From: an uncultured virus (IMG/VR IMGVR_UViG_3300034107_000607)
Taxonomy: Duplodnaviria; Heunggongvirae; Uroviricota; Caudoviricetes
Reading direction: 5' to 3' (one strand)
Virus record (IMG/VR): IMGVR_UViG_3300034107_000607
Length of the DNA: 20,000 nucleotides
Part shown: positions 4,017 to 19,513 of the stretch, piece after piece
Position numbering within the stretch: position 1 is the first letter of the stretch
Layout of the letters: each line of letters starts with the position of its first letter
Program-made: the position numbers and the translations under genes
The notes under the pieces: generated by a model
What the model saw: only the letters and a program-made list of their open reading frames with translations
Database searches by the model: none
Told to the model about the DNA's origin: nothing

Positions 4017-4913
4017 ATGGCATCACGTGTACAACTAATGAAACAGAAGGGACTTATCAGTCCGCCAAGGTGGCTACCTCAAAACATTCACTATGAAGTG
4101 ATCACCGGTTCTGTCAGCTATGCTGTAAGTTCAGACACTTCTGATATGGATGTTGTTGGTTTTTGTATGCCACCAAAAGATGACATCTTCCCGCACCTTC
4201 GTGGTGAGATTCCTGGTTTTGGTTTACAACACAAACGATTTGAATTATGGCAGGAACATCACATCATGGATAATGAATCTCGTCAAGAATACGACTTCAG
4301 TATCTATTCAATCGTGAAGTTTTTTCAACTTGCAATGGAAAATAATCCGAATATGGTTGACATTCTGTTTACTCCACAACGGTGTGTTTTGTATTGCTCT
4401 ACTGTTGCTCAGATTGTCCGTGATAACCGCAAACTATTCTTGACAAAGAATTCGTATCACAAGTTCCGCGGATATGCTTATGCTCAATTGCACAAGATCG
4501 GCACGAAGTCAAATAGTTCCAATCCTAAGCGCCAAGCTGACATCGAAAAACACGGCATGGATCTTAAGTTTGCTTATCATGTTATTCGTCTTGCTCTTGA
4601 GGGTGAACAGATCTTGATGGAGCATGATCTTGACATTGAACGAAATGCTGAAGTCCTGAAAGCAGTTCGTCGTGGTGACTGGAGTGAAGAGAAACTCCGG
4701 AGCTGGTTTGATGCTAAGGAGAAACATCTTGAAGAACTTTATACCAAGTCAACCCTTCGGCATGTGCCGGACGAAGATGCTATCAAGGATCTTCTTATGA
4801 CTTGTCTAGAACAGCACTATGGTTCTCTGGATCAAGCTGTCAAACGCGATGTTCCGGTAGAACGGCTTGTTGCTGAACTAAAGTCCGTCCTTGAAAAGTA
4901 TGAAGGTAGGTAA
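4017..4913 (+). CDS. Pol-beta superfamily nucleotidyltransferase (RlaP/YcgL-like)
   Basis: GSVSYA...SDMD (GS...DxD), NPNMVDIL and KFAYHVIRL motifs. Confidence 0.85.
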   Translation: MASRVQLMKQKGLISPPRWLPQNIHYEVITGSVSYAVSSDTSDMDVVGFCMPPKDDIFPHLRGEIPGFGLQHKRFELWQEHHIMDNESRQEYDFSIYSIVKFFQLAMENNPNMVDILFTPQRCVLYCSTVAQIVRDNRKLFLTKNSYHKFRGYAYAQLHKIGTKSNSSNPKRQADIEKHGMDLKFAYHVIRLALEGEQILMEHDLDIERNAEVLKAVRRGDWSEEKLRSWFDAKEKHLEELYTKSTLRHVPDEDAIKDLLMTCLEQHYGSLDQAVKRDVPVERLVAELKSVLEKYEGR

Positions 4914-7788: not shown

Positions 7789-7891
7789 TTCTGTTTTCAC
7801 ATGCTCTTTAGTCCGTAATGTAGTACGGTTAACCTCGCCCATTTAGTTGGTTGGACTGGTTCGAATCCAAAAAGAGCAGCTGAAAACAGAA
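7789..7891 (+). ncRNA. stem-enclosed tRNA-like RNA (CTGTTTT family, copy 1)
   Basis: TTCTGTTTTCA/TGAAAACAGAA stem enclosing GCTCTTT/AAAGAGC and a GGTTCGAATCC T arm. Confidence 0.6.
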
Positions 7892-8734: not shown

Positions 8735-8915
8735 TTAGACCTCATCATTGAGGAAATAGGTAAAGTAGTGGAATGGTGCAACCCGGATAGCACGCCCGCG
8801 TGAAGCGGGAGACAAGGTTCGAATCCTTACCATGAAAAGCTGGGATCACTGGTTCGAAACAGTTCCCTAGTTTGGAGTAGCTAACCAACAATATTTCTTC
8901 AATTATGAGGTCTAA
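8735..8915 (+). ncRNA. long-stem RNA with tRNA-like D/T core, copy 1
   Basis: 23 of 24 bp terminal stem. Homologous to 14455-14624. Confidence 0.7.
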
Positions 8916-9220: not shown

Positions 9221-9850
9221 ATGTCTAGAAATGAAGATTGGGTTGCAACCGTAATAGCAAATTTAGAAGTAAATGAAAATGGAATTGCACTAGATATAGG
9301 AGCAAATCATGGAATTTACTCAAAATTACTTGCATCAAAATTTGGGAAAGTTTATTCATTTGAACCACACCCAGACAATGTAACAAAGATTAAAGCTAAA
9401 GTTACTGAACAAAATGTTCAAATAGAACAAAAAGTAATTGGAACATCAGATGGTGTTATTGATCTTTTTGTTTGTTCTGCAAATGATGGTGGTCACACTA
9501 TTATGGAAGGTTTGGCAAAACTCAAGAAATGGGGACATTCAGTAAACAATACTATACAAGTACAATCAATAACACTTGATACATTTTGTAAAGATATCAA
9601 AGTTGATTTTATTAAATGTGATATTGAAGGTGGTGAATATGAAATATTTTACCATGGACAAGAAATTCTTACTAGAGATTATCCTACAATTGTCTTAGAA
9701 ACACATCAAGTATCTGACATAAAAAGTGACCAAGTTAAACGTGACAAATTATTTAAATACTTCAAGGATTTGGGGTTTTCAATTCTAGATACCAAAAATA
9801 ATGAAGTTGTAGCATTTACATATGACACACACTATCTAATACAAAAATAA
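9221..9850 (+). CDS. FkbM-family SAM-dependent methyltransferase
   Basis: LDIGANHG, FEPHP, TLD and IKCDIEGGE motifs. Confidence 0.9.
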   Translation: MSRNEDWVATVIANLEVNENGIALDIGANHGIYSKLLASKFGKVYSFEPHPDNVTKIKAKVTEQNVQIEQKVIGTSDGVIDLFVCSANDGGHTIMEGLAKLKKWGHSVNNTIQVQSITLDTFCKDIKVDFIKCDIEGGEYEIFYHGQEILTRDYPTIVLETHQVSDIKSDQVKRDKLFKYFKDLGFSILDTKNNEVVAFTYDTHYLIQK

Positions 9851-9856
9851 AATTAA

Positions 9857-9983
9857 AGGATCATTTCAGCAACAAATATGCATATCATTCGGAGATCGAG
9901 TCGTAGGTGCAATTCCTACACCCCTGACCATACACTGACAGGGGTTAGTTTAGTAGTAAAACGCGTAGCAAAAAGTTGATCCT
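9857..9983 (+). ncRNA. CAGCAA-stem RNA 1 with circularly permuted tRNA-Pro-like module
   Basis: AGGATCA/TGATCCT stem. T arm, then ACCCCTG-A-CCA, then CAGGGGT-TA and D arm. Confidence 0.8.
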
Positions 9984-9994
9984 GATTAAATAAT

Positions 9995-10079
9995 GCCTCC
10001 TTGGTGGAATGGTAGACACAAGAGACTTAAAATCTCTAGCTGTTATGGCGTGCCGGTTCGAGTCCGGCAGGGGGTACCA
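9995..10079 (+). tRNA. tRNA-Leu(TAA)
   Basis: Class II cloverleaf, CCA. Confidence 0.95.
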
Positions 10080-10085
10080 AATTAT

Positions 10086-10176
10086 GGATGGTGCGGAAGC
10101 AGGTGCTTCGACTAGTCTTGAAAACTAGCGTGACGGCTGATACCCGTCAGGGGTTCGATACCTCCACCATCTGCCA
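10086..10176 (+). tRNA. tRNA-Ser(TGA), 8/4 type
   Basis: GGATGGTG/CACCATCT acceptor, 4-bp T stem, G73, CCA. Confidence 0.88.
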
Positions 10177-10960: not shown

Positions 10961-11085
10961 TCTCTGTTTTCACATGAGGGTCATGATGGTCCGTGAGTGC
11001 CCTAATCGTGTCGGCGATTTCGGCAGCTTCCGACAAAGTGAACGCAAGGTTCAATTCCTTGGTGACCCTTAGCTGAAAACAGAGA
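10961..11085 (+). ncRNA. stem-enclosed tRNA-like RNA (CTGTTTT family, copy 3)
   Basis: TCTCTGTTTTCA-CA-TGAGGGTCA pairs with TGACCCTTA-GC-TGAAAACAGAGA. T arm CAAGG-TTCAATT-CCTTG. Confidence 0.6.
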
Positions 11086-11178: not shown

Positions 11179-11253
11179 AGGGGTCAGGGAAACCGGTAAT
11201 CCGCGGGCCTCCAAAACCTTGAGAAGCGAGTTCGACTCTCGCGGCCCCTGCCA
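11179..11253 (+). tRNA. tRNA-Trp(CCA)
   Basis: Loop CTCCAAA, G73, CCA. Weak anticodon stem. Confidence 0.8.
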
Positions 11254-11270
11254 AATATAGAAAGTATATT

Positions 11271-11786
11271 GTGAAGTTTGATAGTTTTATTTTTTATGAG
11301 ATGATTGAAACAGATGCATTGCCACCGAATGGTATATTTGATATTACCCATAGTATGAAAGAAGACTATGTATCTTTATATTCAAAATATTCTGGCAATG
11401 GTGATACAAAAACAAATTCTAATAAAAATTATGCTTTAAAATTAGCTGGTTTATCTTTGTTGAAATTAAATTTACAAAGAGAAGAAATAGAAGAAGTAAA
11501 AACTAATAAATCAAAGACAAAAACAAAAAGTGGAATTGTTTATTTAATTAGTAATCCTGCTTTTGATGGTTTTATTAAAATTGGTATGACCAAAAATCTC
11601 GTAAATCGTTTAAGATCTTATCAAACATATGATCCGATGAAAAGATATAAAGTTGAACATTACCGTGTTGTTGAAAATGCAAGAGAAGAAGAAAGATATT
11701 ATCTAACTCATTATAAAATTAACATTGCAAAAGGTGAATGGGTTTATAAAGAAAATATAAAAGAATTGTTCCTCAGTGGCCGATAG
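11271..11786 (+). CDS. GIY-YIG superfamily (T5orf172-like) endonuclease domain protein
   Basis: GIVYLI...IKIGMT...RL...GEW motifs. Start codon uncertain. Confidence 0.8.
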   Translation: MKFDSFIFYEMIETDALPPNGIFDITHSMKEDYVSLYSKYSGNGDTKTNSNKNYALKLAGLSLLKLNLQREEIEEVKTNKSKTKTKSGIVYLISNPAFDGFIKIGMTKNLVNRLRSYQTYDPMKRYKVEHYRVVENAREEERYYLTHYKINIAKGEWVYKENIKELFLSGR

Positions 11787-12155: not shown

Positions 12156-12231
12156 GGGTCTTTAGCTTAAGATGGGTAAAGCACTGGGCGGAAGTCCGTG
12201 GTAATCAGTTCGAGACTGATAAGATCCACCA
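12156..12231 (+). ncRNA. tRNA-like RNA with abnormal anticodon arm (degenerate Phe GAA or GGAA tetraloop)
   Basis: Good acceptor, D and T arms and CCA. Anticodon region GGGC-GGAA-GTCC. Confidence 0.65.
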
Positions 12232-13783: not shown

Positions 13784-14003
13784 TGGATCATTACAGCAAC
13801 AAATTAGCATCCTTGAAATGGGCCGTGTCGGAGGTTCAAATCCTTCCTCTCCCACCACGGATACTGTTAGTTTATGACAACCTTTCTTGTATAAGATATT
13901 AATAGGCTTATATGGCGAGACAATTGGGTATAAACTAGCGTGCAGTATCTTTGATGGGAGAGTAGCTCAGGTAGTAGAGCAGGTTACGCAAAAAGTTGAT
14001 CCA
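13784..14003 (+). ncRNA. CAGCAA-stem RNA 2 with circularly permuted tRNA-Phe-like module
   Basis: TGGATCA/TGATCCA stem. T arm, CTCTCCC-A-CCA, 98-nt hairpin linker, GGGAGAG-TA-GCTC D arm. Confidence 0.8.
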
Positions 14004-14885: not shown

Positions 14886-14998
14886 AGGATCAATACAGCA
14901 ATTTTAACAACCAGTAGATTGTAGGTTCAAGTCCTACCTTAGATCACACAAGATCTTTGTGGCCAAATGGTAAAGGCAACCGGCAAATAAATGATCCT
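14886..14998 (+). ncRNA. CAGCAA-stem RNA 3 with permuted T/acceptor/D module
   Basis: AGGATCA/TGATCCT stem. GTAGG-TTCAAGT-CCTAC precedes GCC-AAATGGTAAA-GGC. Confidence 0.75.
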
Positions 14999-16003: not shown

Positions 16004-16062
16004 AGGATCAGTTCCGCAAACAAGCGAAAATTTCAATTTTGGTTTGAAAAACAAATGATCCT
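16004..16062 (+). ncRNA. CAGCAA-stem RNA 4 (minimal, Gln-like anticodon hairpin)
   Basis: AGGATCA-GTT-CCGCAA...TGATCCT with TTTCAA-TTTTGGT-TTGAAA. Confidence 0.65.
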
Positions 16063-16692: not shown

Positions 16693-16756
16693 AGGATGGG
16701 TTCAGCAAAAAAGAAAGCAACAAACATTTAATTTGTAAACGCTCAAAAACCATCCT
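16693..16756 (+). ncRNA. CAGCAA-stem RNA 6
   Basis: AGGATGG-GTT-CAGCAA...CCATCCT with compensatory stem changes. Confidence 0.65.
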
Positions 16757-16858: not shown

Positions 16859-16964
16859 GTTTCTGTAATTCAGCGGTAGAAGGGCACCCCAGCTATGATG
16901 GTAAGATACACCGAAAAAGAACTGGCTCTGCGGGACGTGGGTTCGAATCCCACCAGAAACCCCA
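16859..16964 (+). ncRNA. tRNA-like RNA with a long insertion in place of the anticodon loop
   Basis: GTTTCTG/CAGAAAC-C-CCA with normal D and T arms. Confidence 0.7.
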
Positions 16965-18213: not shown

Positions 18214-18319
18214 AGTTTGTGTACAGCAATCAATTAAAATCATAGCATAGGTCGTAAGCTTCGGCAACAAGATCACAACAGTTTTCGATTTTCTGTCCAA
18301 AAAAGTAGACACACAAACT
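18214..18319 (+). ncRNA. CAGCAA-stem RNA 7
   Basis: AGTTTGT-GTA-CAGCAA...ACAAACT-G. The stem is largely changed but still paired. Confidence 0.65.
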
Positions 18320-18325
18320 GTTAAT

Positions 18326-18401
18326 GATCCCGTAGCTCAGATGGTTAGAGCATGCTCTCTAAAAGCAAATGTCGTGGGTTCGAGTCCCACTGGGGTCACC
18401 A
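18326..18401 (+). tRNA. probable amber suppressor tRNA(CTA)
   Basis: TGCT-CTCTAAA-AGCA anticodon arm with normal D, T and acceptor arms, A73, CCA. One nucleotide short 5' of the anticodon stem. Confidence 0.7.
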
Positions 18402-19230: not shown

Positions 19231-19311
19231 AGAGTCTTACTGCTCTTAAATCAGTAAGTGGTCGGAGCGAGATTCCTGGGCATGAAGTAAAACTGCCCAT
19301 TTATAGTTTTT

Positions 19312-19386
19312 GCTAGTGTAGCATAGAGGTAGTGCAACTGTCTCGTAAACAGTAGGTCGTGAGTTCAATTCTCACCACTAGCACCA
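19312..19386 (+). tRNA. tRNA-Thr(CGT)
   Basis: Canonical cloverleaf, CCA. Confidence 0.95.
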
Positions 19387-19388
19387 AA

Positions 19389-19513
19389 TTTGAGGTAAGT
19401 AAAGTCTGAATACGCCGGATTGGTACCCGTAGGCATAGGTTCAGAGCAGATCGGCCAATCTGCAAAAGGAGCATGGGCACCACACTTTGTGGAGATACCG
19501 CACCTGCCTCAAA
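19389..19513 (+). ncRNA. unidentified multibranch RNA
   Basis: TTTGAGGTA/TGCCTCAAA closing stem with three internal hairpins. Confidence 0.45.

Follow-up and report, generated by a model that had tools for sequence, protein, structure and literature searches.

The 127-nt element at positions 9857-9983 of the analysed DNA probably resembles the Y RNAs and partners with a divergent Ro60 protein of the phage; it is not expected to be a decoding tRNA. The window, i.e. the whole stretch of 20,000 nucleotides analysed here, comes from a virus record of 80,190 bases (G000) with an estimated completeness of 40%, which carries T4-like topoisomerase genes with best cultured matches at about 45% identity. 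The reading draws on the anatomy of the element, on covariation within a family of similar elements, on the Ro60-like fold of a protein model from the same record and on the co-occurrence of both partners in phage genomes. Since an architecture like that of YrlA RNAs is combined with departures from YrlA in the 5' motif, in the proximity of a TROVE gene and in the Rfam score, we treat the element as a variant of the Y RNAs.

Read from its sequence, the element holds a permuted tRNA-like fold in which the 3' half precedes the 5' half. A closing stem encloses a T arm, a 7-bp acceptor stem with an encoded ACCA, an 8-nt linker and a D arm; no piece of it is coding. The initial annotation had described a circularly permuted tRNA-Pro-like module with internal CCA at this place. 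Its T arm, acceptor strands, A73-CCA, linker and D arm were all correctly positioned, and the Pro-type acceptor end (C1:G72, A73) is present, but it had overlooked the closing stem (9857-9863/9977-9983) and the motif of the handle, as well as the Ro60-like gene and the sister cassettes. The parts of the element are:

9857-9863, + strand: 5' strand of the handle stem that closes the element with 7 bp, pairing with 9977-9983 (pair probability 0.72-1.0)
9867-9872, + strand: conserved, single-stranded CAGCAA motif, 3 nt past the closing stem; candidate binding site of the Ro60-like protein
9884-9896, + strand: V or anticodon-like hairpin of 3 bp with a 7-nt loop at 9887-9893 (U33, triplet UCG, G37, A38), from comparison
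9897-9902, + strand: top two bases of a split anticodon stem (pairing with 9964-9965) and a 4-nt variable loop ending in C48, from comparison
9903-9919, + strand: T arm with G55 replacing U55, from sequence and pair probability
9920-9930, + strand: acceptor 3' strand (9920-9926) followed by A73-CCA (9927-9930), from sequence
9931-9938, + strand: 8-nt linker closing the acceptor stem, read from sequence, with a predicted RNase P cut at 9938/9939
9939-9965, + strand: acceptor 5' strand (9939-9945, C1:G72), U8-A9 and D arm (9946-9962, A18-G19), G26 and positions 27-28, from sequence, parser and covariation
9977-9983, + strand: 3' strand of the closing stem with an A-rich strand just before it, from folding and pair probability

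Pair probabilities from ViennaRNA were as high for the T stem (0.93) and the acceptor (0.87-1.0) as for the closing stem, while the D stem was weak (0.29-0.38). The fold of the whole element had a z of -2.66. A strict parser that demands the handle together with both the T and the D arm, the acceptor and the closing stem recognised 2 elements in the window; in 200 dinucleotide shuffles it never recognised one. This upholds the permuted fold of the initial annotation. As written in the window the element received no call from ARAGORN, and an Rfam scan of the window returned no family at 9857-9983. The tertiary signatures of a tRNA are nevertheless present: U8, A14, G19 and C56 are in place, the comparative alignment adds a G15:C48 Levitt pair, and A18/G55 replaces G18/U55 at the elbow. 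The element is flanked by an ORF of the FkbM methyltransferase family on one side, and a tRNA-Leu begins 11 bases past its end.

A pattern composed of the handle and a T loop matched 99 stretches in viral contigs. Parsing of all loci provided 52 distinct full elements in phages, one of them with a mis-registered head; 49 have room for a 7-bp acceptor. For the covariation analysis 22 members of similar length were aligned with MAFFT (alignment A2). In this alignment 93.9% of the cells were paired, 22 of 30 pairs changed on both sides, and the covariation score was 0.584 compared to 0.170 for shuffled and 0.06-0.13 for slid alignments. RNAalifold recovered the same main helices unaided. Two-sided changes were seen in 6 of the 7 closing-stem pairs. 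CAGCA did not vary among the 22 members, for most of which it was imposed by the search pattern. Pairing of the T, D, acceptor and closing stems was part of the parser selection, such that the acceptor strands, paired in 44-49 of 49 members at each position, are partly selected for this property. The tertiary contacts lay outside the selection. Over the 52 elements the 18/55 elbow was G18/U55 in 39, A18/G55 in 12 (including the window element), A18/U55 in one and G18/G55 in none, i.e. G55 was accompanied by A18 in 12 of 12 members. The Levitt pair 15:48 was G-C or A-U in 48 of 52. As the family members are related, these counts overstate the number of independent events.

Cassettes beside the gene of the candidate protein partner (see below) occur in the cultured phages phiM19, JoeDirt, F370, Bas63 and VAfA18, and cultured phages with cassettes near this gene infect Sinorhizobium, Mycobacterium, Campylobacter, Listeria and E. 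coli. In Bas63 (MZ501086.1; L220:16781-16908) the strand opposite to the hypothetical CDS bas63_0137 encodes a full handle RNA that has its T, acceptor and D arms; two short cassettes are found near it, and the three handle cassettes of this phage belong to its tRNA cluster. The 82 matches in cellular genomes were mostly chance-like, with five loci in Lachnospiraceae that look genuine. A metagenome scan gave at least 105 distinct matches, of which 2 were permuted elements, one identical to that of the window. A blastn comparison of positions 9800-10100 to cultured phages gave matches in 454 records; the best 30 rows all fell on the adjacent tRNA-Leu, and in none of the records did the match extend over 80% of the query. 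A loose version of the handle pattern matched all 5 control records and did thus not discriminate. In the literature searched we found no description of the handle family; an earlier one may be contained in Burroughs and Aravind 2016 or Sim et al. 2020.

The handle itself (7-bp terminal stem, three nucleotides, CAGCAA) is shared by six further cassettes in the window, the one at 18214 being only probable. With up to 3 mismatches allowed, the window contains 9 recurrences of its motif, compared to 0.9 expected occurrences. The cassettes are:

13784-14003, + strand: sister handle RNA with a full permuted tRNA body (triplet GAA), encoded CCA and a hairpin linker of about 100 nt
14886-14998, + strand: sister handle RNA with T arm, short-looped acceptor-like stem and D arm, lacking CCA and anticodon hairpin (57.5 bits to model R1; missed by the strict parser)
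16004-16062, + strand: short handle cassette with a bare hairpin and a 7-nt anticodon-like loop
16603-16681, + strand: short handle cassette with a T-arm-like hairpin
16693-16756, + strand: short handle cassette
18214-18319, + strand: probable further handle cassette (weak; 16.8 bits to R1)

Across the family, 42 of 57 short cassettes contain a hairpin with a 7-nt loop (shuffled mean 18, maximum 28), and 21 of the 57 have U33 together with a purine at position 37 (shuffled mean 3, maximum 10). Short stems of similar sequence around T-arm-like hairpins or a whole tRNA were noticed at window positions 7802-7878, 11054-11074 and 19241-19473; some have the same downstream motif, possibly forming a second cassette type.

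The gene that accompanies the handle encodes, in G000, a 487-residue protein with DUF2828 and DUF7788 domains (phrog_850). It lies on the same strand as the element about 27.7 kb upstream and is directly preceded by a short handle cassette. The TROVE domain (PF05731) was found neither in G000, i.e. in a record that is 40% complete, nor in 5 relatives. We modelled the protein with AlphaFold from a 16-sequence alignment (pLDDT 78). Within this model it follows the Ro60/Rsr plan of a helical-repeat ring with a C-terminal vWA domain. All 12 matches listed by Foldseek at E<0.001 were Ro60/Rsr structures (E 8e-8 to 2e-6, TM 0.40-0.57). A second structure search gave VIA Z scores of 17.6, 13.6 and 13.5 for three Ro60s compared to at most 10.3 for bare vWA domains. 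The structural alignments to Ro60 span 383-395 residues at 13-16% identity, and phmmer of the protein against PDB sequences returned no Ro60. According to the model, the DUF2828/DUF7788 protein of G000 thus has a divergent Ro60-like ring fold.

To determine how often handle and gene occur together, we searched 43 records from 44 of 98 pattern loci, skipping near-duplicates and apparent chance matches. The DUF2828/DUF7788 protein was encoded in 29 of these 43 records and in 7 of 7 records that were at least 90% complete. All 28 proteins scanned were DUF2828/DUF7788 and none TROVE. In each of the 5 Lachnospiraceae loci the gene lies within 4 kb on the same strand; for viral elements in loci of at least 7 kb it was found within the examined flank in 16 of 42. 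The clade comprises matches in 705 of 50,697 phage records. Five near-complete relatives that were picked by their topoisomerase gave a mixed outcome: one combines gene and element, two are devoid of both, G001 (complete) has a full element and only a C-terminal remnant of the gene, and G048 (97% complete, linear) has full elements and no gene. The link between handle and gene is therefore strong, but not absolute. In G001 (L205:2456-3135) the leader cassette is separated from the C-terminal Ro60-like remnant by an unrelated ORF, with the full handle RNA retained. A further 22 relatives chosen by topoisomerase were mostly fragments, and the one complete record among them (G071) has neither gene nor element.

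The anticodon-like region differs from what had been proposed. The heptamer TTCGGAG (9888-9894), which the initial annotation considered anticodon-like, is not framed by a stem (1 of 5 pairs). Covariation places a conserved 3-bp hairpin around a loop that is shifted by one base (9887-9893), such that the triplet is UCG rather than CGG and the Pro anticodon reading is out of register; UGG is found in one orthologue. All 3 hairpin pairs change on both sides in the family alignment. In the single-sequence ensemble, hairpin and split stem have a probability of about zero, and the full model at -19.1 kcal/mol costs 12.8 kcal/mol over the minimum of -31.9 kcal/mol. The anticodon reading is thus a comparative one. 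In 24 of the 52 elements the loop combines U33 with a purine at position 37 and keeps the usual tRNA spacing to the T arm, with varied triplets; the hairpin is absent in 18. An intact 5-bp anticodon stem occurs in 5 of the 24. In 19 of the 19 remaining, split stems the bases after the D arm complete the 5 bp (random expectation 1.6, maximum 7), from which we infer that the handle interrupts the anticodon stem in its 5' strand. The graft point slides among 26/27, 27/28, 28/29 and 29/30 across members. A scan with a V-hairpin pattern gave mostly chance matches among 31 loci.

When the element was re-permuted by script, ARAGORN called it as a tRNA-Arg(TCG) with complete cloverleaf, and 32 of the 34 members having the hairpin were called after the same operation. 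The orthologue L034, which has the same acceptor and the triplet UGG, became a tRNA-Pro(TGG). In L087 the loop of the element is joined to a different acceptor, i.e. acceptor and loop are uncoupled.

The retained loops suggest a functional variant of the Y-RNA-like reading, in which Ro-stabilised handle RNAs would act as decoys or sponges absorbing host anticodon nucleases or tRNA-sensing defences. Besides the loops of the 24 full elements and the hairpins of the short cassettes, a report on Bas63 agrees with this idea: gp130, a DUF2828/DUF7788 protein of the same family as that of G000, is reported to counter the Ppl defence system (10.1101/2024.10.10.617714). However, more than a third of the full elements (18 of 52) miss the hairpin, which in the window element is thermodynamically unfavoured, the loops may be relics of the tRNA donors, and Ppl is not known to cleave tRNA. 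Overall we consider a decoy role conceivable but rather unlikely.

The CCA follows the acceptor at a distance of exactly one base in 16 of 49 members, while offsets of 0, 2, 3 and 4 bases occur in 1, 0, 0 and 0 members. It is absent in 33 of 49, including all 21 with linkers of at most 7 nt; with longer linkers it is present in 16 of 28. The linker varies in the family from a few to more than 100 nt. Both distinct orthologues of the element (L034/L176 and L266) retain the CCA though their linkers differ. Such retention fits selection for processing as well as inheritance from a donor tRNA gene. In the subfamily of 13784-14003, L025, L048, L060, L088 and L044 the CCA is followed by a hairpin insert of 70-110 nt in the acceptor loop; its sisters L007, L050 and L020 have drifted from CCA. 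Concerning expression, a 168-nt contig of a relative from an RNA library spans 9853-9924 with 5 differences; being an assembled contig, it cannot show transcription, ends or processing. Small word shares were found in 8 sequencing runs, and the 4 examined were all assembled contigs. A promoter scan gave no enrichment (12 compared to 9.8).

The initial annotation had envisaged that RNase P and trimming open the linker to yield a two-piece, CCA-ended mimic as in two-piece tmRNA. The opening is plausible and has a precedent in the YrlA RNA of Mycobacterium smegmatis (PMC4201824). The right comparison is a YrlA-type Y RNA and not tmRNA. In a stronger version of this idea, ProRS would charge the exposed CCA end, with a tmRNA-like or amino-acid-donor role of the product. 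The identity determinants of tRNA-Pro are C1:G72, A73 and the anticodon bases G35 and G36. This set is incomplete in the element: G72 and A73 are present on a 7-bp acceptor, whereas the triplet UCG has C35 in place of the G35 recognised by ProRS. The exact offset of the CCA, its retention in both orthologues, the Pro-type re-permutation of L034, and a CCA-adding-enzyme-family ORF and permuted tmRNA in G000 speak for a charged mimic. Against it stand the uncoupling of loop and acceptor in L087, the 33 members that lack CCA, the missing mRNA-like tag domain and the possibility that the CCA is a relic of the donor tRNA. We regard charging as improbable.

The element is embedded in a region devoted to tRNAs. 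ARAGORN detected 25 tRNAs on the + strand of the window, and 35 tRNAs plus a permuted tmRNA in the whole record. This tmRNA is of the two-piece type and lies outside the window at reverse-strand positions 53417-53828. Permuted two-piece tmRNAs are typical of alphaproteobacteria, which weakly hints at this host group. An ORF of the CCA-adding-enzyme/poly(A)-polymerase family (G000:C1:79857-80015, - strand), an RlaP RNA-repair nucleotidyltransferase (window 4017-4913) and, identified by eye only, TilS-like and Pth2-like ORFs point to a heavy investment of the phage in tRNA upkeep. We also noticed a tRNA with an amber-suppressor-like CUA anticodon at window positions 18326-18401, labelled Pyl by ARAGORN, and tRNA-like stretches detected by Rfam and not by ARAGORN at 16859-16961 (with about 30 extra bases), 8767-8835, 11179-11250 and 12156-12228. 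A T5orf172/MUG113-family, homing-endonuclease-like ORF lies among the tRNA genes at window positions 11271-11786.

Within such a cluster one may suspect that the element is left over from tandem tRNA genes that decayed, or that it acts in cis on the processing or regulation of the tRNA transcript, and that it has no RNA function of its own. In addition to the cluster of 25 tRNAs, the order of T arm, CCA, spacer and D arm corresponds to that of tandem tRNA genes, elements persist in two records that have no intact Ro-like gene, and short cassettes are often found just upstream of the gene. Decay or a cis signal is still very improbable, since pairing of the two acceptor strands is perfect and shows covariation (44-49 of 49 per position, partly parser-selected), elbow swap and Levitt pair covary, and phages that are only distantly related retain the closing stem and the motif. 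We find it hardly credible that the element is a permuted tRNA gene proper, of the kind found in red algae and some archaea, in which the handle would be excised, the ends ligated at 28/29 and the acceptor opened to give a decoding tRNA (the ligation alternative of the initial annotation): in spite of the ARAGORN calls for re-permuted members and of the same possibility having been raised for YrlA (10.1101/312249), the junction slides from 26/27 to 29/30 unlike a splice site, many members have no anticodon hairpin or no room for CCA, no splicing endonuclease is known in bacteria according to the same source (10.1101/312249), RtcB was not found in G000 (at 40% completeness its absence is not established), a tRNA that joins a Pro acceptor to an Arg triplet would cause mistranslation, normal genes for tRNA-Pro and tRNA-Arg(UCG) are present in the phage, and the same handle holds cassettes that have no tRNA body.

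In the Y-RNA-like reading that we prefer, the element would be an RNA of a T4-like phage in which a complete tRNA cloverleaf was circularly permuted, with the anticodon stem opened at 28/29 in its 5' strand. The handle, consisting of the 7-bp terminal stem and the single-stranded CAGCAA, would be grafted at this opening and most likely provides the predicted binding site of the DUF2828/DUF7788 protein. The tRNA-shaped head would be offered to tRNA-handling enzymes, by analogy to YrlA, through which Ro60 is tethered to factors of RNA decay or repair. The RNA would be released from a polycistronic tRNA transcript. A cut by RNase P at 9938/9939 and trimming to the encoded CCA, which would leave two pieces held together by the stems, we expect with about an even chance. 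The complex might protect or repair the tRNA pool during infection. The sequence comparison further suggests that the V arm of YrlA-type RNAs is a retained anticodon stem-loop.

Elements like that of the window are numerous, and an example of two-piece processing had already been published. For a large clade of Ro60-like DUF2828/DUF7788 proteins the analysis provides RNAs that are candidate partners, and a motif whose binding can be tested. Since Bas63 has a full element as well as gp130, the role of a phage Ro60-Y RNA particle can be tested in E. coli K-12. As a speculation that we think is doubtful, phages with a DUF2828-type Ro60 could carry a whole library of handle RNAs, in which one protein-binding handle presents different parts of tRNAs, either complete permuted tRNAs with an intact anticodon loop or bare anticodon hairpins. 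Loaded on the Ro ring, and some of them opened by RNase P and chargeable, these RNAs would counter host defences that cut tRNAs, as programmable decoys or as guides for repair. If true, the library would constitute an RNA-based counter-defence system.

Among known systems, YrlA RNAs provide the closest comparison. They have the order V, T, acceptor and D within a terminal stem (PMC4201824; 10.1101/312249), and most are described as circularly permuted tRNAs with closed acceptor stems and no anticodon loop (10.1101/312249). The element shares this order (its V hairpin being defined by covariation only), the paired 5' and 3' ends, the elbow and Levitt signatures, the variable acceptor loop, the presence of several Y-like RNAs per genome and a Ro60-fold gene in the genome. 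It differs in its A18-G55 elbow and its DNA-encoded CCA. The YrlA 5' motif GNCGAAN0-1G occurs in 0 of 52 elements, which have the stem, three nucleotides and CAGCAA in its place, and where YrlA is defined by a TROVE Ro60 gene within about 4 kb on the same strand, a DUF2828/DUF7788 gene is found here 27.7 kb away. The Rfam model RF02553 (YrlA, cut-off 69 bits) did not match the element even at E<=10. It gave 33-40 bits for 5 of 11 homologous loci and 30-36 bits, also below the cut-off, for published phage YrlAs, which in turn reached 50-51 bits with our model R1. The two published phage YrlA hosts that we checked have TROVE proteins and no such handle. Inspecting the published YrlA alignment and the CcrColossus YrlA (L216:2340-2450) by eye, we noticed a 3-bp hairpin with a 7-nt anticodon-like loop in several sequences, and in published YrlAs two bases past the D arm that complete a 5-bp stem. 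RNase P cleaves the YrlA of M. smegmatis both in vivo and in vitro, giving a 5' piece that ends in CCA (PMC4201824). This YrlA shares the 7-bp acceptor stem with the element and its two-piece, CCA-ended product is the precedent for the proposed opening; its CA is added after trimming, whereas the CCA of the element is templated, and handle and Ro clade differ.

Phage Ro60 proteins have been described before. The Ro60 of the Thermus phage phiLo, which gave the highest structural score with the G000 protein (Z 17.6), binds the phage RNAs Yrl1 and Yrl2 and the host PNPase (PMC12135203). These RNAs have CGAA motifs and simple hairpins, and the accessible part of that paper describes no tRNA-like head (PMC12135203). 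Y RNAs were suspected near Rsr-like phage genes, with neither RNAs nor motif named in the accessible parts of these sources (PMC12282133; 10.1101/2024.10.10.617714). For the Ro60-like CKA15_055 of the Listeria phage CKA15, the stand-in tested was a Pecentumvirus relative. Phage Ro proteins are merely mentioned in the accessible parts of PMC7824862 and PMC12363180.

With two-piece tmRNA the element shares a permuted gene, an internal CCA and an intervening segment that closes the acceptor stem. Unlike tmRNA it has no tag reading frame, it carries a D arm and an anticodon-like hairpin, and it was not called as tmRNA by ARAGORN or Rfam; G000 moreover carries its own, separate permuted tmRNA. The permuted tRNA genes of red algae and archaea likewise place the 3' half before the 5' half and have an acceptor that is initially closed by a loop (10.1101/312249). 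Compared to these genes, the element family has no fixed junction and no splice motif, and is characterized by a conserved handle that is a candidate for protein binding.
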